A DNA stretch of 64,000 nucleotides from Candidatus Aminicenantes bacterium (GCA_963725825.1 CAVSAI010000020.1:26995-90994), one strand, 5' to 3'. Shown: positions 55,457 through 64,000, counted from the stretch's first letter. The notes: a model not told the origin generated them from the letters alone. Numbers and translations are program-made.

Positions 55457-56455
55457 TTACTTCAGCTGGAACCGGACGGTCACGGTGAAGACGACCGGCC
55501 GGGGCCGCCCGTTGATGATCATCGGCTCGTAGACCCACTGCCGGACGGCGTCGATGGCCGCCTGGTCGAGCAGGGGGATGGAGCGGAGGACCTTGACGCT
55601 CGTGACCCGCCCGTAGACGTCCGTCGTCGCCTCGACGATGACGATGCCCTCGACGCGGGCCTGGCGGGCGATCTCCGGATAGACCGGGGCCACTTCCCGG
55701 ACGAGCTTGGGCGGCTTGACGTCGCCGATGGCCCGCACAGGCGCTTCGACCTCGCCGACGACGCCTCCCAGGACGCCGCCGACGACTCCGCCGAGCACGC
55801 CGCCGACGACTCCGCCCTCGACGCCGCCTTCGACTCCGCCCTCGACGCCGACGTCGGAGAGCGTTTCCTCGGCGATCTGCTCAGGGATCTCGACGGGGGC
55901 GACGAGGCGGCCCGCCTCGGTCGGAGCCGCGGCCTGGACGCGCTTGATGCGCGCGCTCGTCGACGCCGCCTTGCGCTTGGCCGGCGGCGGCGGAGGGGGC
56001 GGCGGCGGGGGCGGGGGCGCGAGGAACGCGCTGTAGACCTCGACGGTCGGCAGATCCCCTGTGTTAAGGAGAGGAAGAACGATGAGAAGGACGATGACGG
56101 CGACGTGGGCCACTAGAGACAGCGGGAGCAAGACGGCCTTCTGTCTTGTCCGTTTCTCCGGCTGATAAAATGAATCCTTGAACATTCGAACCTCCGCGAC
56201 TCGCGATGCGGGGGCTCCGGCCTGCTCGCGGGCGATCCCGGCCCGGACGCGTCCGGGGAAAGAGTCCCAGTAGTCCCGGTCTTTCGGACCAGGGGGAGAC
56301 GCCTCGGCCATCGTCGCGATCTTGCGGATGAACTCGAGGTCCCGCCGGCACTCCGGGCAAGTCTTGAGATGCTTCTCCACCCGGGGCCGGTCGGCCGCCC
56401 GGAGCTCGCCGTCGGCGAAGGCCCCGATGAGTTCCTGGAGTTTTCGGTGTCTCAT
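55457..56455 (-). CDS. zf-HC2 anti-sigma factor fused to a TonB family protein
   Basis: FADGEL..HLKTCPEC; TM with SLVAH; poly-Pro; GGVEGG repeats; TonB_C. Confidence 0.9.
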   Translation of the reverse strand: MRHRKLQELIGAFADGELRAADRPRVEKHLKTCPECRRDLEFIRKIATMAEASPPGPKDRDYWDSFPGRVRAGIAREQAGAPASRVAEVRMFKDSFYQPEKRTRQKAVLLPLSLVAHVAVIVLLIVLPLLNTGDLPTVEVYSAFLAPPPPPPPPPPPPAKRKAASTSARIKRVQAAAPTEAGRLVAPVEIPEQIAEETLSDVGVEGGVEGGVEGGVVGGVLGGVVGGVLGGVVGEVEAPVRAIGDVKPPKLVREVAPVYPEIARQARVEGIVIVEATTDVYGRVTSVKVLRSIPLLDQAAIDAVRQWVYEPMIINGRPRPVVFTVTVRFQLK

Positions 56456-56456
56456 C

Positions 56457-57047
56457 TCAAGCTCCCCTTCCGAGGGAATCCGCCAGGAGCTCCTTCAGCT
56501 TCTGGCGGGCCCGGTTGAGCCGCGACATGACGGTGCCGAGCGGCAGGCCGAGGGTCCGTGAGATCTCCTCGTAGCTCAGGCTCTCGTGAAACCTCAGGAC
56601 GAAGACGCTTCTCTGATCGGCGGGAAGGGATTCCACCGCCCTTTCGAGCCGGGCCTGGAATTCCGCGCTCTCCAGCTGCCTCTCGGGGTCGTCGCCCTTT
56701 GGGGCCGACGGCATGCGCCGGCCGCCGGGCGAGTCGTCTTCGAGCGGCACCTCCCGGCCCCGCGATTTGAGGTAGTTGAGCCCGGAGTTGACAGCGATCT
56801 TCCTGAGCCAGGGGTAGAGAGGCCATTGGGCATCGAACCTTTCCAGCGCGAAGTAGGCCTTGATGAATGTCTCCTGGGCGAGGTCGTCGGCGGACTGGTG
56901 CGCGCCGGTGAGCCGGCGGCACAGGGCGTAGACCCGTTGCTGGTATCTCCGGACCAGGCTCTCATAAGCGTCCATGTCTCCCTGCTGGGCTTTCCTGACG
57001 AGGACGGCATCCTCCGGATGCTCGTTCGGTCTCGTCGGAGCTCCCAT
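56457..57047 (-). CDS. ECF RNA polymerase sigma factor
   Basis: LVRRYQ, ADDLAQETFIKAY, WLRKIAVN, LSYEEI..GTVMSRLNRAR. Confidence 0.95.
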   Translation of the reverse strand: MGAPTRPNEHPEDAVLVRKAQQGDMDAYESLVRRYQQRVYALCRRLTGAHQSADDLAQETFIKAYFALERFDAQWPLYPWLRKIAVNSGLNYLKSRGREVPLEDDSPGGRRMPSAPKGDDPERQLESAEFQARLERAVESLPADQRSVFVLRFHESLSYEEISRTLGLPLGTVMSRLNRARQKLKELLADSLGRGA

Positions 57048-57256: not shown

Positions 57257-58174
57257 ATGAGAAGCCATCCGAGGACAATGCTCCCCGCGCTCGCCGCCCT
57301 GGCGGCCTTCCTGGGCTTGACCGCCCTCGCGGTCCTGGCCGCGCCTGAGAAGGCCGCGGCCCGCCAGGAAGAGGGGTACGTGGGGATCGAAGCGTGCGCC
57401 GCGTGCCACGAGGAGACCGTGACCGCGTTCCGCGAGTCCATCCACGGGCAAAAGGGCTTCGCGATGCGCTCGAGCCACAGCTGCGAAACGTGCCACGGAC
57501 CGGGCAAGGCCCACGTGGACGCGGGCGGCGGCAAAGGGACGATGAAAACGGTCCAAGCCCTGCCCAAGAACAAGCGGTCCGAGTGGTGCCTGACGTGCCA
57601 CGAACGCGGCGACCGGACAGAGTGGCTGGGGAGCATGCACGAGTCCCGCGAGCTCGCCTGCGAGGACTGTCACTCCGTCCACAGCCCCGCGGTCGAGAAG
57701 ACCCTGCTCAAGGAAGCCGAGACGGACCTCTGCTTCACCTGCCATAAGCAGAAAAAGGCCCAGTTCTTCCGGGCCTCGCACCACCCGGTCCGGGAGGGCA
57801 AGATGGAATGCTCCGCGTGTCACGATCCCCACGCCATCCAGGAAGGGCGCCTCGTCGACCAGGCGGCCGTAACGGAAACGTGCTACCGCTGCCACGCCGA
57901 AAAGCGCGGCCCCTTTATCTGGGAGCACATTCCCGTCCGCGAGGATTGCCTGACCTGCCACGAACCCCACGGGTCCAATCACCTGAAGATGCTCCGGGCC
58001 AAGGAGCCGTTCCTGTGCCAGCGCTGCCATTCCGACACCCGGCACCCCGGCACGCTCTACGACCAGAGCCAGCTCGCCGTGGCGAGCAACCGTCTGTTCG
58101 GCCGGTCCTGCACGAACTGCCACGCGACGGTCCACGGCTCGAATCATCCTTCGGGCTCGACCTTCTTGAGATGA
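57257..58174 (+). CDS. mtrA: Decaheme c-type cytochrome, DmsE/MtrA family
   Basis: Signal peptide, 10 CxxCH, KRGPFIWEH, HGSNHPSG..FLR C-terminus. Confidence 0.95.
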   Translation: MRSHPRTMLPALAALAAFLGLTALAVLAAPEKAAARQEEGYVGIEACAACHEETVTAFRESIHGQKGFAMRSSHSCETCHGPGKAHVDAGGGKGTMKTVQALPKNKRSEWCLTCHERGDRTEWLGSMHESRELACEDCHSVHSPAVEKTLLKEAETDLCFTCHKQKKAQFFRASHHPVREGKMECSACHDPHAIQEGRLVDQAAVTETCYRCHAEKRGPFIWEHIPVREDCLTCHEPHGSNHLKMLRAKEPFLCQRCHSDTRHPGTLYDQSQLAVASNRLFGRSCTNCHATVHGSNHPSGSTFLR

Positions 58175-58185
58175 CGGGGCGCGCC

Positions 58186-60402
58186 ATGAAAAGAACCATC
58201 TTGGCCATCACCTCGGCGGCGGCGATCTTGGGGATGGGCGCTCTTCAGGTCGGGGCCCAGGACGAAAAGAAAGGCGATCCGATCGTGATCAAGGGCGGCG
58301 TCACGGCCGGCGTCCAGGCCGTCGGCGAGACCGCCCGGTCCTCCAAGTTCTACGAGTACCGCGACGTTCCCCGGGGCCTCTTCGCCCCGTTCCTGACCCT
58401 GGACGTCAGAAAAGGCAGCCGCTTTGTCCGCGTCGACGCGGAAAATATCGGCCAAGCCGATCAGCGCCTGCTGGCCGGGCTCGGCGACCGGGGGACCTTC
58501 AAGCTCGACCTGGGCTATGACCAGATCCCCCACCGCTTCAGCTTTTTTGGGGCCACGCCCTATGTCCAGCCGTCCCCGGGCGTCTTCACGTTGAACGACG
58601 TCATCCGGTCCGCGGCCGAGGCCCTTGTCCCGAGCGGAACGAGCACCAACATCGCCGCCGCGCGGGACCTCGTCTCGAGCTTCCTCACGAGCGCCGCCCC
58701 CATCGGCCTCGGGCTCGAGAGACGCGCGGCGACGGCCGATCTCACTTACACGCCGAGCGTGCCCTTCAGCTTCAACGCCGCGGTGAGCCACGAGACGAGG
58801 ACGGGGACCCGGCCGTTCGGGGCGTCTCTCGGCTTCAGCGACGCGATCGAGCTCCCCGAGCCCATCCGTCACCAGACCACCAACCTGGACACGAGCCTCG
58901 AGTACCATCGCCGGCAGGTCACGCTGCGGGCCGGGGTCGCCGCGTCCTTTTTCGACAACGACGTCCAGACCCTGACCTGGGACAATCCCTATCGCATCAC
59001 GGACTCGACCTACGGCTCGGCTTACGTCGCCGGCAACGGGACCGCCCACGGCCGGACGGCCCTGTGGCCGTCCAACGACGCTGTGAGGTTCTCCCTTTCC
59101 GGGACCTACAAGCCGCGGCCCGGAACACGGTTGTCCGCGTCCGTCTCCTACGGCGCCTTCAGCCAGAACCAGAAGCTCCTGCCCTTCACGATCAACACAG
59201 CCATCCCCGCCTCCGACCCGAACGCTGTGGACGCCCTGTCCGCCCCCCGGGAGACGGCCATGGCCAAGGCGCACATCGGCTCGCTGGACCTGACGCTGAG
59301 CTCCAGGCTGATGAGATCCGTCTATCTGACGGCGGGTTTCCGCTATTACGATTTCGCCGACAGGACCGAGGCGCTCGACATCCCGACGGGCTACGCCCGG
59401 GTCGATCAGGTCTGGGAAGACATCCCGGTCGCCATCGAGCCCTACTCCTTCAGCCGGGCCCGGCTTTTCGGCGACGTGTCCGTCAACCTGAGCAAGGACA
59501 CCACCCTCAAGGTCGGCTATTCCGTTTTCAACGTCCGCCGGCATGAAGGCGCGGCCTCGGCGGAAGCGGACAGGTCCGACGAAGGCGCCTTCAAGGCGTC
59601 CATCGACAGCCACCCGTGGGATTGGCTGACGCTCCGCGCGAGCTTCCTCGATGCCCGGAGACGCTGGTCCCTCGACGACACGTTCGTGGCCTACATCCCG
59701 GGCTTCAATTTCAAGCGCTATTTCGAGGCCAGCCGGGACCGCCAGGCCGTCGATGTCCTCGTCGGTCTGAGCCCGGTCGACAGCCTCGAGATCGACCTGA
59801 CCTACGCCCTCGGGCGCGACAATTACCCCAAGTCCTCTTACGGGCTGACCCGGGACGACTTCGACATGTACGGCCTCGACGTCAGCTACGCCTTCTCCAA
59901 GAAACAGACGGTCTACGCCTTCTTCTCCCACGAGCAGTACGACTCCGGCCAGGCGGACCGGCAGAGCGGCGCGGACTTTTCGACCAATCCCCAGGACGAT
60001 TGGACGGCGAATCTGAAGGACTCCGTGAACACGCTCGGCGCCGGCCAGACGATCGGGCTCGTCGCCGGCAAGCTCGATCTCGATCTCTCGGGATCCTACG
60101 CCAGGGCTCACGGGACCTCCTTCCTCTTCTCGCCGCCGGGAGGGGCCCCGGACCTGGCCGCCAATTTCGATGCCCCCCTCGATACGACGACCTGGTGGAC
60201 GGTCCGGTCCTCGTTCAAGTGGAAAGTGACGGAGAGGCTCGGCGTCGTCTTCGCCTACTGGTATGAGCAGTACGGCCTCAAGGACATCGTTCGCAACGAC
60301 GTCGCCGTGGACTATGCGTCCGCCGGGGCCATTTTCCTCGGGGCCCTCGAGCCGGGCTACAAGTACCACGTCGGCTCGGTGAGGTTCGTTTACAGCTGGT
60401 GA
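58186..60402 (+). CDS. mtrB: MtrB/PioB family outer membrane beta-barrel
   Basis: SKFYEYRD, ELPEPI, LTWDNP, LWPSN, terminal YSW; directly follows the decaheme gene. Confidence 0.92.
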   Translation: MKRTILAITSAAAILGMGALQVGAQDEKKGDPIVIKGGVTAGVQAVGETARSSKFYEYRDVPRGLFAPFLTLDVRKGSRFVRVDAENIGQADQRLLAGLGDRGTFKLDLGYDQIPHRFSFFGATPYVQPSPGVFTLNDVIRSAAEALVPSGTSTNIAAARDLVSSFLTSAAPIGLGLERRAATADLTYTPSVPFSFNAAVSHETRTGTRPFGASLGFSDAIELPEPIRHQTTNLDTSLEYHRRQVTLRAGVAASFFDNDVQTLTWDNPYRITDSTYGSAYVAGNGTAHGRTALWPSNDAVRFSLSGTYKPRPGTRLSASVSYGAFSQNQKLLPFTINTAIPASDPNAVDALSAPRETAMAKAHIGSLDLTLSSRLMRSVYLTAGFRYYDFADRTEALDIPTGYARVDQVWEDIPVAIEPYSFSRARLFGDVSVNLSKDTTLKVGYSVFNVRRHEGAASAEADRSDEGAFKASIDSHPWDWLTLRASFLDARRRWSLDDTFVAYIPGFNFKRYFEASRDRQAVDVLVGLSPVDSLEIDLTYALGRDNYPKSSYGLTRDDFDMYGLDVSYAFSKKQTVYAFFSHEQYDSGQADRQSGADFSTNPQDDWTANLKDSVNTLGAGQTIGLVAGKLDLDLSGSYARAHGTSFLFSPPGGAPDLAANFDAPLDTTTWWTVRSSFKWKVTERLGVVFAYWYEQYGLKDIVRNDVAVDYASAGAIFLGALEPGYKYHVGSVRFVYSW

Positions 60403-61184
60403 GGCCGGCGGTCCCTTTCCCTCGCGGCCAGGATCTTCCGGTACTCGAGGGGGTGAAGCGTCTTCAGCTGGTGCCCGGTGATCTTGCCGTCGAGCCAGAT
60501 CCGGCTCATCGGGAAGACCTCGGGATTGAGGTGGACGTTGTACATGTGCCAGATGATGATGGCCAGGAAGGCCAGCATGGCCTCGTAGCCGTGGATGATG
60601 ACGAAGGTGTCGTGGAGCCAGAGCGGGAAGAGGCTGAGGGACAGCTCGACGTTCCACATGAAGAAGCCCGAGAAGATCATGACCAGCGAGCCCCAAGCGA
60701 CGGCCAGGTATTCGAGCTTCTCGATGAAGTTGTACCGGCCGTACTCCGGCGGCCGCTCGAACTTCCAGAACGGGTGACGGTCGAAAGACCGCCTCAGGAC
60801 CCCCTTCCGGTAAAGCCAGCCCGAGAGGCCGACGTTGTAGCCGAACAGGGCCAGGGCGTCGAGGGCGTCCTTGCGGCGAGGCAGGAGCTCGCGGAAGTTC
60901 CCCCGGCCCCGGCGCGTGAAGAGGGTATAGCCGAAGTGCCAGACGATGTCGGCGATGAGAAGAAGCGCGGCGGCCCGGTGGATGACGCCGCGGTAATAGA
61001 AGACGCGGCCGAACGAAAAGACGGCCTTGAAGAGCCGCATCTCATAGAACATCAGCGGCAGCCCGGTGACGACGAGGAGGGTGAAGGAGACGATGAGCAG
61101 GACGTGCTGGAGCCGCTCGACCCGGTTCATCCGCAGAAAGATCTCGTCGTCGCGGATGAGGCCGCGTCCGTTCAGCGCGTCCAT
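60390..61184 (-). CDS. Cytochrome b subunit (FdnI/CbcL-like)
   Basis: RLQH..VTGLP, IHRAAA, RYNFIEKLEY, IIHGYEA..IWHMY heme b ligands. Confidence 0.9.
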   Translation of the reverse strand: MDALNGRGLIRDDEIFLRMNRVERLQHVLLIVSFTLLVVTGLPLMFYEMRLFKAVFSFGRVFYYRGVIHRAAALLLIADIVWHFGYTLFTRRGRGNFRELLPRRKDALDALALFGYNVGLSGWLYRKGVLRRSFDRHPFWKFERPPEYGRYNFIEKLEYLAVAWGSLVMIFSGFFMWNVELSLSLFPLWLHDTFVIIHGYEAMLAFLAIIIWHMYNVHLNPEVFPMSRIWLDGKITGHQLKTLHPLEYRKILAARERDRRPHQL

Positions 61185-62407
61185 CGGCCCCTCAGGCGTC
61201 GATAGAGGTCGGCGGCGATGAACGCCAGGAAGATCGAGATGAGCCCGCCGATAACGACGAGATAGACGACCTTGACGGTGTAGGCCCAGCGGTTCTCGGC
61301 CCGCACCGAGACGACGTGGACGCGGCCCTTGGAGAAATTGGCCCCGGCGCCGGGGTGGCAGGTCCCGCAGGTCGCGGCCAGGTTGGCCGGATTGATGGAC
61401 GAGCGCGGGTCGGTCGAAGGGCGGATGTCGTGGTGCCCGTGACAGCTGGCGCAGTTGGCGACGCGGGTCTCGCCGGATTTCGAGGCCATGCCGTGGTAGG
61501 ACGCGGCGTAGGTCTTGAGCCGCGACGTCAACAGCCCGTATTGCCGGGCCAGGCCCTCGTTATCGTGGCAGCGGGCGCAGACGGCGGCCACCTTCGTCGC
61601 GTAGACGAGGGAGCCGAGGTCGGCCGGCGAACGGATGTCGTGCTCGGCGTGGCAGTCCGTGCAGACCGGCACGTCGCGGCTGCCCTTGACATAGGCTTTC
61701 CCGTGGACGCCCTCGAGATAGTCGCGCTCGATCCCGGCGTGGCAGGCGCCGCAGGTCTTGATGATGTTCGGCCGGGCGACTTTGGACCGGGTGTCGTCCA
61801 CGGGCCGGACGTCATGCCCGCCGTGACAGCTGACGCAGGTCGCGGCGGAGCTCAGGCCGGCCTTCGACAGGGCCCGGTAATGGACGCTCTGGAGATACTG
61901 TCCGACGAATCCGGGCCCGCGCTCGGCCGGGACCCGGCCGAGATGGCAGGCCGTGCACGTTTCCGGGATGTTGAGGGGGAACGTCCGCGAATCCGGGTCC
62001 TCGCCCGACCGGATCTCGTGCGTTCCGTGACAGTCCTTGCACTGGACGGCGGAAGGCGTCGGCCCGCCCTCGGCCCCGCTGTGGGCGCTCGCGCCGACCG
62101 CGGCCGCCTCATCCCGATGGCAGGAGGCGCAGGCGACGGGCTTGAGCTTCTCCGCGTGCGGAAAATCGGAGACCTTGGCCAGGTCGGCGTGACAGTCGAC
62201 GCAAGAGATCCCGGCCGAGCCGTGGATCGACGCGGCGAACCTGGCGCCGTCGACGAACAGGGACCGCCCCTGGCTTTTCAGGCCGGAATCGCTGTGACAG
62301 GCGAGACAATCGTCGTCCGAAGGCCGGGCCGCGAGCGGCGCGACCGCGGCGAGGAAGGCCAGGGCCGCCGGCAGGGCGAGCCGGGCAAAGAGGCCGGGCC
62401 CGCTCAT
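61172..62407 (-). CDS. Membrane-anchored multiheme cytochrome c (11 CxxCH)
   Basis: Signal peptide, 11 CxxCH, C-terminal TM. Confidence 0.93.
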   Translation of the reverse strand: MSGPGLFARLALPAALAFLAAVAPLAARPSDDDCLACHSDSGLKSQGRSLFVDGARFAASIHGSAGISCVDCHADLAKVSDFPHAEKLKPVACASCHRDEAAAVGASAHSGAEGGPTPSAVQCKDCHGTHEIRSGEDPDSRTFPLNIPETCTACHLGRVPAERGPGFVGQYLQSVHYRALSKAGLSSAATCVSCHGGHDVRPVDDTRSKVARPNIIKTCGACHAGIERDYLEGVHGKAYVKGSRDVPVCTDCHAEHDIRSPADLGSLVYATKVAAVCARCHDNEGLARQYGLLTSRLKTYAASYHGMASKSGETRVANCASCHGHHDIRPSTDPRSSINPANLAATCGTCHPGAGANFSKGRVHVVSVRAENRWAYTVKVVYLVVIGGLISIFLAFIAADLYRRLRGRWTR

Positions 62408-63642
62408 GGGCCCCCGCGTCCCCGGACCCTGCGGATCAGGGATGGGAGGAGGTAGAGGAAGCTCAGGGCCGTCAGGATAAAGACGACCCAGAGCAGCGCC
62501 TTCCGGACGTAGTAGGGGGCTCCGGAGCTCGGACGCCCGTAGTCCCTGTGGATCCTCGTCCCGGCGATCTTGGCGGTCATGGCCGGATGGCAGGACGTCT
62601 GGCCGCAGGTCTGCCGCAGGTTGGCCGGGAAGACCTTCGACCCCGGGTCGGAGGCCGGCCGGATGTCATGAACGCCGTGGCAATCGACGCATGTGGCCTC
62701 GGCCGTCCCGCCCATGCCGATGGCGATGCCGTGGAAGCTGTCGATGAAGGTCGCGATCCGGTCCTCGGGCACGCCGTACTTGCGCATGATCTCGGGCCGG
62801 GCGTGGCAGGCGGAACACGTGTCGGGGATGCGCCCTTTGGCCGTCGGGGATCCCGGCGAAGCCGCCGGGGCGACGGCGTGCTCGCCGTGGCAATCCACGC
62901 AAAGCGGGACGTCGGGGTTGCCCTTGAGGGCCTCGCGGCCGTGAATGCTGAGGGCGTACTCTTCGAGAGCGCGCGAGTGGCACTTGCCGCAGGTGGCCGG
63001 CTCCTTGGCCGGAAGCCGCGATGCGCCGGCGCCCTGGATATCGTGGGCGCCGTGGCAGTCGGTGCATACGGCCGCGAACTCGGTCCCGCCCGGGCCGGGC
63101 AGGCTGCGGCCGTGGACGCTGCGGCTGTATTCGCGATACGGCGATTCGGCGTGGATGTTGTATTTCACGACGACGGCCATGTCCTCATGGCAGCGGGAGC
63201 AGGTCATGGGGATGTTGCGGCGGTTGACCAATGAGCCGGGGTCGGCGATCGGCTTGATGATATGACGGCCGTGACAATCCCAGCAGCGGGCCACCTCCGG
63301 CTCATGACGCTCGAGATAGGCCCGGCCGTGAACGCTGTCGGGGTATGAGGCCGGCCCCGCGCCGGGGCGTGAACCGGAGGGCGCCAGATGGCAGGAGGCC
63401 CCGCAGGTGGGCGGAGGCAGGTCCTTTTTGGCCTGGTGGGGCGGAGTCCCCGGTCGCGCGATGAGCCCCGTGTGGCAATCCGCGCAGGCGAGCGACGCGT
63501 GGACCGCGCCGTTCAGCGAGATGTCCTGATGGCATTCAAGGCAGGCTCGCGAACCGGCCCCGGTCTTATTCTGGGACGGGAAAGCGGCCGAGACCCCGGC
63601 CGTGGCGAACAAGATAACGATCGCGAGCTGTCGTAGATTCAA
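62404..63642 (-). CDS. Membrane-anchored multiheme cytochrome c (9 CxxCH + CX3CH + CX4CH)
   Basis: TTG start, signal peptide, heme motifs including CGASCH and CGQTSCH, C-terminal TM. Confidence 0.92.
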   Translation of the reverse strand: MNLRQLAIVILFATAGVSAAFPSQNKTGAGSRACLECHQDISLNGAVHASLACADCHTGLIARPGTPPHQAKKDLPPPTCGASCHLAPSGSRPGAGPASYPDSVHGRAYLERHEPEVARCWDCHGRHIIKPIADPGSLVNRRNIPMTCSRCHEDMAVVVKYNIHAESPYREYSRSVHGRSLPGPGGTEFAAVCTDCHGAHDIQGAGASRLPAKEPATCGKCHSRALEEYALSIHGREALKGNPDVPLCVDCHGEHAVAPAASPGSPTAKGRIPDTCSACHARPEIMRKYGVPEDRIATFIDSFHGIAIGMGGTAEATCVDCHGVHDIRPASDPGSKVFPANLRQTCGQTSCHPAMTAKIAGTRIHRDYGRPSSGAPYYVRKALLWVVFILTALSFLYLLPSLIRRVRGRGGP

Positions 63643-63679
63643 GACTCAAAACCGTCTGGCCCGGCGGGATGGCCTGAGT

Positions 63680-64000
63680 CTACTTGGCCGGAACGGGATG
63701 CTTGATCTTATCCCACGCGGAAGCGAAATCGAACTTGATGCCGTGGGGGTTCTCATGGCACTTCAGGCACTGCGCTTTGATGGCCTCCGGGCTGCCGTAG
63801 AGGACGAGCCCGTTCTTCACGGCCTCGGCCTTGTCCTTCATGATATTCAGCTTCCTGTACGCGCTCCCGGGTCCGTGGCAGGTCTCGCAAGAGACCCCCT
63901 CGGCTTTGAGCTCGGGCGCCTTCTCGGCGAGAGGCGCGTGACACTTGAGGCAGCGCGCGTCCTCAGCCGGCTTGTCGACGCCCATGGCCTTGGCGGCGTC
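63680..64000 (-). CDS. Cytochrome c554-like small multiheme cytochrome, 5' end outside the window
   Basis: CLKCH, GVSCETCHGPGS, CLKCH; frame is open to position 64000. Confidence 0.88.
   Translation of the reverse strand, partial: DAAKAMGVDKPAEDARCLKCHAPLAEKAPELKAEGVSCETCHGPGSAYRKLNIMKDKAEAVKNGLVLYGSPEAIKAQCLKCHENPHGIKFDFASAWDKIKHPVPAK

Follow-up and report, generated by a model that had tools for sequence, protein, structure and literature searches.

CymA, ImcH, CbcL and CbcBA are the characterised quinol oxidases of extracellular electron transfer, and how energy is conserved at the inner membrane during this process is still an open question. Here we describe a 12-gene cluster that begins at position 57257 of a 64,000-nucleotide stretch of DNA (the window) from a Candidatus Aminicenantales genome, in which an MtrAB-type outer-membrane conduit adjoins an operon for three candidate quinol-oxidising modules: a multiheme cytochrome with a NapC/NirT domain (c17), a Rieske/cytochrome b/9-heme cytochrome (c9) complex and a split CbcL-type protein (c11a and b561). 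Its closest described counterparts are MtrAB, MtoAB and PioAB systems with an MtrH or MtoC protein, such as mtrABC-mtrH-cymA of Rhodoferax and mtoABCD of Gallionella and Dechloromonas; MtrH/MtoC genes lie beside mtrAB or mtoAB in seven species, iron reducers and iron oxidisers alike (PMC6295460; statements on cited papers apply throughout to the available parts of each). The shared features are a decaheme cytochrome and an MtrB barrel beside a CbcL/MtrH/MtoC-type enzyme, together with a NapC-family domain and a small periplasmic carrier. Unlike those systems, however, the present locus has its CbcL-type protein split over two genes and accompanied by an extra paralogue, its NapC domain fused to 14 further hemes, an added Rieske/cytochrome b/9-heme complex with system II maturation genes, and a tetraheme carrier instead of MtoD or PioC; MtrC is lacking.

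The Geobacter Cbc6 cluster extHIJKLMNOPQS (GSU2930-2940; PMC5877670, 10.1101/2021.04.15.440034) likewise unites a barrel, a Rieske protein, a cytochrome b and multiheme cytochromes (12, 10, 5 and 4 hemes). Its barrel ExtI nevertheless resembles phosphate-selective porins rather than MtrB, it has no MtrA, and its cytochrome b is short (ExtP, with the membrane protein ExtQ), whereas the cytochrome b described here is unsplit and its cluster contains no rhodanese or selenoprotein. Scores against the Ext equivalogs stay far below the cut-offs (ExtP 198 against 290; ExtN and ExtO about 20 against 200), and no ExtI, ExtM or ExtQ match is listed. The Geobacter ext cluster affects selenite and tellurite reduction and not that of Fe(III) citrate (PMC5877670), and in the available literature the Rieske-containing clusters of Geobacter have no shown role in metal reduction. 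With Geobacter ImcH/CbcL/CbcBA the locus would share the feeding of several quinol-oxidising modules into one export route, as well as the CbcL-type architecture; there the modules occupy separate clusters (GSU3259, GSU0274 and GSU0590-0594), whereas here they form one locus with the conduit. Like the Shewanella CymA-CctA/FccA-MtrCAB chain, it has an MtrA and an MtrB that exceed the family cut-offs and match PDB entry 6R2Q; unlike it, it has no MtrC or OmcA and adds a bc-type complex at the inner membrane.

The pairing of MtrAB with a CbcL/MtoC-type protein is already published (PMC6295460). The coupling of MtrAB to a bc complex, the c17 hub and the swappable outer conduit found across a third of Aminicenantia appear to be undescribed in the searchable literature. 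In the available main text of a survey of MtrCAB (PMC8805035) the words ‘Rieske' and ‘ImcH' occur 0 times, and its available part reports no inner-membrane quinone oxidoreductase near Acidobacteriia mtrCAB; nor is the cluster described in the available parts of PMC13212322, PMC8100337, PMC10654088, PMC12133095 and 10.1101/2024.02.22.581617. The possibility, raised by a first-pass annotation of the window, that the arrangement had already been described for this lineage was not borne out in the literature searched: no publication on it was found, most subscription papers and all supplements, where hits may be tabulated, lying outside the scope of the searches.

The mtrAB conduit and the adjoining operon

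The window, G000:C20:26995-90994, belongs to a 70% complete genome whose taxonomy, left to be confirmed at the first pass, is that of Candidatus Aminicenantales (G000 denotes this genome, C its contigs, G with another number other genomes and L the loci read). Eight of the ten loci with the closest MtrB come from Candidatus Aminicenantes/Aminicenantales, and the nearest named MtrB relatives are those of Aminicenantes, Fischerbacteria and Acidobacteriota. Inspection of the genes beyond 64 kb, which the first-pass annotation had recommended, shows that the minus-strand operon extends 7.4 kb past the window to 71389, continuing with resB, ccsA, c17, Rieske, cytochrome b and c9. The cluster thus has 12 genes and 63 heme motifs, listed here with positions past 64000 in window numbering continued on G000 C20 (locus L001):

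57257-58174, plus strand: mtrA, MtrA/DmsE-family decaheme cytochrome with signal peptide (305 aa, 10 CxxCH)
58186-60402, plus strand: mtrB, MtrB/PioB-family outer-membrane β-barrel (738 aa)
60390-61184, minus strand: b561-like gene (b561), FdnI/HydC-like b-type cytochrome (PF01292)
61172-62407, minus strand: c11a, 11-heme cytochrome with C-terminal anchor (11 CxxCH, hydropathy)
62404-63642, minus strand: c11b, paralogue of c11a with C-terminal anchor (9 CxxCH + CX3CH + CX4CH)
63680-64198, minus strand: c554-like soluble tetraheme cytochrome, predicted periplasmic carrier (PF13435, 54.7 bits)
64277-64249, minus strand: internal promoter TTGACA-N17-TAGAAT (11/12 consensus)
64274-65536, minus strand: c9, 9-heme cytochrome with C-terminal anchor
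65546-66622, minus strand: cytochrome b/b6, unsplit, with PEWY and His 92/106/193/208
66624-67049, minus strand: Rieske protein, box II CPCHNGRF
67046-69100, minus strand: c17, NapC/NirT domain, 17 CxxCH + CX4CH (684 aa)
69093-70001, minus strand: CcsA (TIGR03144, 258 against a cut-off of 188)
69998-71389, minus strand: ResB (PF05140, 262 bits)

Both members of the conduit named in the first-pass annotation are confirmed by family models. MtrA, with its 10 CxxCH motifs, reaches 271 bits with TIGR03508 (cut-off 192) and has Shewanella MtrA as its best PDB match (6R2Q_A, E 2e-62); MtrB reaches 276 with TIGR03509 (cut-off 240) and 320 bits with PF11854, and matches 6R2Q_B (E 1e-18). The two genes are co-oriented with a gap of 11 bp, and the 3′ end of mtrB overlaps that of b561 tail to tail by exactly 13 bp, as had been noted from the sequence. 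In transcription order the operon reads resB, ccsA, c17, Rieske, cytochrome b, c9, c554, c11b, c11a and b561, with overlaps or spacings of at most 9 bp except for gaps of 75 and 37 bp flanking c554. The count of at least 35 heme motifs within the window also stands (33 CxxCH plus two atypical, CX3CH and CX4CH; three of the four motifs of the c554-like gene lie inside). As for the two anchored 11-heme cytochromes that had been proposed, hydropathy gives c11a and c11b each a signal peptide and a C-terminal hydrophobic helix; c11a has its 11 hemes, and c11b reaches that number only if CX3CH and CX4CH are counted. The c554-like protein scores 50 with the Nitrosomonas c554 model, against a cut-off of 400. 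The cluster contains neither a catalytic subunit nor a CxxCK motif.

The promoter pattern between c9 and c554 recurs, with variable spacer, in 17 of 19 loci. Upstream of six other operon genes the same pattern is found in 0–1 of 19 loci, and upstream of the Rieske gene in 7; its strict form occurs 31 times in the whole G000 genome, and its conservation is partly explained by the overlap of its −35 element with the c9 stop codon. No conserved mtrA promoter emerged with the pattern used (3 of 11), a terminator scan gave 9 sites where 9.4 are expected, and an Rfam scan of the window gave 0 matches. GC3 of the 12 genes (0.83–0.93) agrees with the genome mean (0.875 ± 0.045), hence there is no sign of a recent foreign insert, and recent horizontal insertion of the cluster, considered as an explanation, receives no support from it. 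The best-matching sequencing runs all come from one study of soil and freshwater-sediment metagenomes and may include the source sample; the search listed no RNA run for the stretch. Among contigs from four runs, none listed spans the stretch, and among those shown none bridges the mtrB/b561 overlap with 31 letters on each side, so that this junction is supported by the assemblies of relatives. Contigs in three of the four runs join 60408-60411 to 63665-63680, omitting the c11b-c11a-b561 block, with sides of only 30–51 letters; they possibly derive from related organisms. Frameshifts in mtrB of L023 and in several operon genes of L024 are probably assembly errors.

Several neighbouring or comparable genes were considered in turn. 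An ECF sigma factor and an anti-sigma/TonB-C fusion (55457-57047, minus strand) are oriented divergently to mtrA. In most congeners this pair sits next to mtrA, but in G016 it is displaced and in other genera it is not adjacent, so that it probably lies outside the conduit. Matches to PF22113 proved to be generic multiheme matches and not MtrC. G000 encodes two octaheme cytochromes with lipoprotein-like signals (G000:C25:3936-5279 and C29:57873-59219; L027, L028), the C25 copy having no PDB match. This family, present in 41/41 genomes of the genus and in 1/45 other genomes of the family, was rejected as a dedicated MtrC substitute, MtrB occurring in only 8/41 congeners. A second porin-cytochrome-like cluster (G000:C30:12055-15009, L029) comprises a 6-heme cytochrome, a 432-aa beta-barrel-like protein with a weak SlpA_C match and a 12-heme cytochrome.

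Three candidate quinol-oxidising modules

The c17 protein carries 18 hemes and one N-terminal transmembrane (TM) helix. Its N terminus matches PF03264 (36 bits, cut-off 24) and NrfH (2J7A_C, E 1e-7), and the 17+1 heme pattern is kept in 117 of 120 homologues. The NrfH-like CxxCHxM motif is present, with Met63 in 120/120; Lys96 is likewise invariant (120/120), Glu98 follows at K+2 in 118/120, and K+6 is Met or Gln. The single TM helix and the absence of CX3CH set c17 apart from ImcH, for which PMC6295460 gives three N-terminal TM helices and CX3CH. The first-pass view that the inner-membrane part resembles CbcL rather than CymA therefore needs to be divided: it holds for the CbcL-type part and fails for the operon as a whole, since c17 starts with a domain of the NapC/NirT (CymA/NrfH) family. 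In a quick IQ-TREE tree of 43 c17 sequences, MtrB-linked copies fall in at least four places, the basal forks being open.

The Rieske and cytochrome b genes, 1 bp apart, encode a Rieske protein with boxes I and II and an anchor, and an unsplit cytochrome b that keeps H92, H106, H193, H208 and PEWY. Proteins of the b6f type with heme ci are marked by a Cys for this heme in an N-terminal YCxGG motif and by a separate subunit IV; the 11 orthologues aligned have YF/YYFGG there, without the Cys, and an unsplit cytochrome b, and do not correspond to that type. In Rieske box II, Gly and Phe replace Ser and Tyr in the 11 orthologues aligned. The wild-type Rieske potential presumably lies near +0.29 V. 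In yeast, losses of these Ser and Tyr residues lower the Rieske potential by about 130 and 65 mV (PMC12954380). The substitutions suggest a potential of about +0.1 V, as in menaquinol-oxidising complexes; with both potential-raising residues missing, a low-potential centre is expected, which would fit menaquinol oxidation.

The 9-heme cytochrome follows cytochrome b in 14/14 loci that have cytochrome b. Complex prediction for cytochrome b and c9 gave 0.58 against 0.00 for the best control (at least 94% of contacts agreeing between runs; partner pLDDT 84). Of 157 solved pairs, 116 attain the mark used, as do 2 of 215 mismatched ones; at values of 0.60 or less it is attained by only 18 solved pairs and by both passing mismatches, so the prediction lends the predicted pairing weak support. 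A divergent second Rieske–cytochrome b pair occurs elsewhere (L132:5457-7049, L131:4939-6433, L167, L168). Loci L132, L167 and L168 have it in tandem with the canonical one, and L131 has it on its own; PEWY is absent from it in L131 and L132 (PSWF, PGWF), which suggests heterodimeric or non-Qo bc variants.

The third module is a CbcL/MtrH/MtoC-type protein split into a periplasmic half, c11a, and a membrane half, b561. Among 59 longer homologues of b561, 57 carry an N-terminal multiheme domain that best matches c11a; the remaining two start within the b domain. H27, H69, H83, H198 and H213 of b561 are conserved in 55–56 of the 56 fused homologues aligned, from which two partial proteins and one 1636-aa protein were left out. 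The hallmark of CbcL/MtrH/MtoC, a multiheme c domain (3–23 motifs) joined to an FdnI/HydC-like di-heme b domain with conserved His, is found here on two genes overlapping by 13 bp rather than in one polypeptide. This bears out the first-pass proposal that a porin-cytochrome conduit is tied to inner-membrane quinol-interacting cytochromes. The assignment is one of architecture, as described in the available parts of PMC6295460 and PMC9129911 (the latter for CbcL as a multiheme c domain plus a b-type membrane domain), and not of comparison with a named CbcL sequence. A cluster look-up returned no Geobacter CbcL, and searches of PDB sequences gave one weak match for c11a (28PB_A, E 3e-5) and none for a fused homologue. 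The paralogue c11b is 32–36% identical to c11a orthologues.

Linkage across Aminicenantia and other Acidobacteriota

The mtrB neighbourhood was read in 19 Aminicenantia genomes, and operon genes adjoin mtrAB in 13 of them. The two are convergent in 8, all congeners of G000, co-oriented in 2 (G016, G032) and head to head in 3 (G053, G150, G169); in G032, from another family, mtrA-mtrB-resB-ccsA-c17-Rieske-cytb-c9-c554 all lie on one strand. The linkage of mtrAB with the operon is beyond chance; the convergent layout noted in the first-pass annotation is incidental. The CbcL-like module is optional among relatives, c17 and Rieske-cytochrome b-c9 being the more conserved partners: G009 lacks c11b, c11a and b561, G003 lacks c11b, and fused forms replace the split pair in some Aminicenantia (L120-L123, L133).

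Class-level counts come from one draw of 251 Aminicenantia genomes, which are kin and not independent, so that co-occurrence is given as a pattern and not as a statistical test. MtrB is patchy: it occurs in 8/41 congeners and 14/87 genomes of the family, and a strong PF11854 match (at least 190 bits) in 16/251 genomes of the class, 21 weaker matches being set aside. A second porin is found in 71/251 genomes, and the two porins occur together in 0/251. The c17 gene is present (E ≤ 1e-30) in 83 of the 251 genomes; 71 of these 83 have a porin conduit (13 MtrB, 58 second porin), against 16 of the 168 without c17. Where the second porin and c17 share a contig (33 genomes), no more than 12 kb separates them in 29; 25 more genomes have them on different contigs. 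Among 20 of the 83 c17 loci, picked for long contigs and family spread, Rieske-cytochrome b-c9 adjoins c17 in 14, the second porin (610–640 aa where whole) is in view upstream in 9, and a tenth shows the end of the tandem decaheme described below.

The second porin belongs to an apparently undescribed porin-cytochrome set (L118:447-7043; also L115, L119-L122, L124-L126 and L130), made up of a DmsE-like decaheme (TIGR03508 184–191, just below the cut-off of 192), the porin, a 710–780-aa tandem-repeat decaheme and usually an HAO-like octaheme (PF13447, 99.5 bits), not all members being in view everywhere. L133 carries a GSU2203/GSU2204-type pair above the NCBIfam cut-offs. The tandem decaheme has no CxxCK in 8/8 sequences and no match in a PDB sequence search. 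A fold of the whole protein (pLDDT 50.7) was replaced by one of a single repeat (pLDDT 92.6, 34 alignment rows), for which Foldseek places the surface reductases OcwA and OmhA first (probabilities 1.00 and 0.98; E 3e-3 and 1e-2), no match reaching E ≤ 0.001; the Atlas gives ‘polyheme membrane-associated cytochrome c' clusters at 0.95. In L123 an NrfD, 4Fe-4S and multiheme module (L123:3788-6647) lies between ccsA and c17, and a similar NrfD module lies near c17, without Rieske or cytochrome b, in L128 and L129, so that a fourth kind of quinol enzyme may use the same hub.

MtrB-like genes are found in 73 of 401 Acidobacteriota genomes, 66 of them outside Aminicenantia. Among 20 loci read from these other Acidobacteriota, a Rieske gene, a PEWY cytochrome b and a c9-like gene stand beside mtrAB in 4, from three families; a CbcL-type gene does so in 4; and an ImcH-type gene (3 TM helices, CX3CH, 5–6 CxxCH) lies directly beside mtrAB in 8 (L172, L173, L175, L176, L178, L179, L180 and L181). 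The available part of PMC6295460 reports no mtrAB beside imcH and describes ImcH only as a quinol oxidase of Fe(III) reducers.

Proposed electron flow, alternatives and host metabolism

We consider it probable that the cluster is an outward extracellular-respiration chain from the menaquinol pool to external acceptors, partly coupled to a Q-cycle; each electron-flow step, and its direction, we infer from the gene set, the motifs and their conserved linkage. NADH dehydrogenase, for which G000 encodes a full nuo cluster (complex I), would reduce menaquinone, and as many as three sites could oxidise the quinol: the NapC-type domain of c17, the Qo site of Rieske/cytochrome b/c9 and the c11a/b561 module. 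The Rieske/cytochrome b/c9 complex would operate a Q-cycle, gaining additional proton-motive force when the acceptor lies above roughly +0.1 V, and the CbcL-type module would serve low-potential acceptors, by analogy with Geobacter. Electrons may cross the periplasm through the 14-heme tail of c17, the soluble c554-like tetraheme or both, and MtrA inside MtrB would deliver them to the surface, with no dedicated MtrC, for Fe(III) or Mn oxides, humic quinones or an electrode. ResB and CcsA of the operon would mature the 63 heme sites, and the internal promoter could allow expression of c554 and the CbcL module independently of the bc part.

For the class as a whole, at slightly below an even chance, we suggest that about a third of Aminicenantia (83/251), a widespread class without cultured members that is regarded as fermentative, possess an overlooked extracellular-respiration system, in which an 18-heme NapC-fusion hub would accept plug-in bc and CbcL modules and two mutually exclusive conduits, a design extended across Acidobacteriota by the MtrAB-bc and MtrAB-ImcH pairings. 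It is part of the same tentative proposal that a low-potential bc complex with a 9-heme acceptor couples a true Q-cycle to export, the CbcL module being separately promoted. The PEWY-bearing Rieske/cytochrome b complex, whose genetic tie to MtrAB persists across several families and classes, makes a direct candidate for export coupled to a Q-cycle, and the cluster can be tested as a unit because it carries its own heme-attachment genes. If active, it would give a common lineage of soil, sediment and aquifer a part in the cycling of Fe, Mn and humics. Searches built around MtrCAB would overlook the cluster or label it ‘possible iron oxidation/reduction'; the available part of the FeGenie paper (PMC7005843) lists cyc2 or sulfocyanin for Aminicenantes.

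Several observations weigh against outward respiration or against parts of this design. As first noted for the immediate neighbourhood, there is no MtrC or OmcA: none lies in the cluster, and none was found in five genomes (G000 and four congeneric carriers, 70–96% complete), where TIGR03507 reaches at best 17.6–20.6 bits against a cut-off of 209. A tandem decaheme homologue was likewise found in 0/5, G000 and four congeners, so the surface step in the genus of G000 would be bare MtrAB, as in uptake systems. In 6 of the 19 mtrB neighbourhoods (G202, G043, G048, G054, G059, G063) mtrAB stands alone within the stretch read, c17-like genes lying elsewhere in the genome in G043, G054 and G059; 6 of the 20 c17 loci have no Rieske-cytochrome b-c9 next to c17, and neither porin occurs in 12 of the 83 c17 genomes. 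The tandem decaheme of relatives has a lipobox in only 1/8, and structural alignment of its repeat by VIA-align gives ties: OcwA (Z 11.9, rmsd 3.3, 208 aligned), NrfA (Z 11.6, rmsd 4.8, 247 aligned) and OmhA (Z 11.4, rmsd 3.6, 223 aligned), with octaheme nitrite reductase within Z 11.3–11.9. In CymA and NrfH the acid of the quinol site stands at K+6/7; the quinol site of c17 is putative, since its conserved acid is at K+2. Residue rules can mispredict Rieske potentials (PMC12954380). Finally, no menaquinone ring pathway was found: MqnA/D were found in 0/5 genomes, and among the carriers searched neither MenB nor the MqnC/E family rises above cut-off. The one related gene that turned up is MenA-like (5/5 genomes, 82–97 bits against a cut-off of 102), so quinone would be salvaged or made by an unrecognised route; until its identity is established, this gap weighs against every quinol-based model. 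The MenA-like prenyltransferase of G000 lies at G000:C3:1051-1803; precursor (DHNA) salvage is possible in the lineage.

Electron uptake of the MtoAB/PioAB kind is unlikely in our judgement. In such a scheme MtrAB would take electrons from Fe(II), reduced humics or sulfide minerals, c554 would pass them to heme-copper oxidases, and quinone would be reduced by the CbcL/MtoC-type module or by a bc complex working in reverse. This reading draws on MtrAB without MtrC, a feature that the first-pass annotation had taken as a pointer to uptake and that is not indicative by itself; on CbcL/MtoC homologues beside mtoAB in Fe(II) oxidisers, with no sequence mark of direction in the available part of PMC6295460; and on the A-type operon and second two-subunit heme-copper oxidase of G000. 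Such oxidases were, however, found in only 3 of 5 carriers, and in neither G003 (96% complete) nor G032 (93%), and RuBisCO was found in 0 of 5 carriers, leaving little need for reverse flow. The low-potential Rieske signature, the ImcH-type neighbours of mtrAB in other Acidobacteriota and the pairing of the same operon, in most of the class, with a conduit having a third, OcwA/NrfA-fold decaheme also favour export.

Service to a periplasmic terminal reductase that acts on a soluble acceptor (nitrite, hydroxylamine, sulfur oxyanions, or selenite as in Geobacter Ext), with MtrAB as a side branch or as importer or reducer of soluble oxyanions, seems rather improbable. Relatives do have an HAO-like octaheme and an NrfA-fold decaheme beside the operon and, in L123, L128 and L129, inserted NrfD/4Fe-4S genes; the 12 porin-free c17 genomes and the selenite/tellurite phenotype of ext (PMC5877670) point the same way. 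Nevertheless, the G000 cluster, whose operon the first-pass annotation had allowed might serve such a reductase, holds no catalytic periplasmic reductase gene and no CxxCK; NrfA was not found in G000, the single match among five genomes being c11a itself; the two molybdopterin-family matches of G000 lie in an NADH-linked cytoplasmic cluster and in nuoG; and the octaheme and tandem decaheme were not found in G000, yet the porin link is kept. It is improbable, too, that the cluster is a fermenter's redox valve or capacitor, whose hemes would store surplus electrons or dump them to shuttles or partner cells with little energy gain while the bc complex worked separately under microaerobic conditions. 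The lineage is described as fermentative and saccharolytic in the available parts of PMC4381525 and PMC4897734, the cluster is patchy (MtrB in 8/41 congeners), and an internal promoter stands between the bc genes and those for c554 and the CbcL module. Against this, two other Rieske/cytochrome b-c operons in G000 could serve its oxidases, and the Rieske/cytochrome b pair of the cluster retains PEWY and accompanies mtrAB across several families and classes. Electron transfer from menaquinol to methanogens is uphill and thermodynamically unlikely, which also tells against the interspecies exchange envisaged at the first pass.

Outward respiration would sit in a host whose metabolism is broader than fermentation. 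Aminicenantes are described as a fermenter in the available part of PMC4897734, and are predicted to ferment and respire aerobically in that of PMC4381525, in whose main text the word ‘cytochrome' occurs 0 times. The first-pass picture of a fermenting organism does not extend to a pure fermenter, as nuo genes and two heme-copper oxidases are encoded. G000 also has near-duplicate blocks (G000:C39:4001-17196 and C42:29084-44981; L030, L031), each with pentose-phosphate genes, a Rieske gene, a cytochrome b-c fusion and a 7-heme protein of 798 aa, and one with a cytochrome P460-like gene; they could reflect true duplication or bin contamination. A 7-heme 790-aa cytochrome, to which Pfam and NCBIfam give no specific family name, is encoded with a His-rich membrane protein at G000:C22:39672-43649 (L026), downstream of a Gfo/Idh/MocA oxidoreductase.

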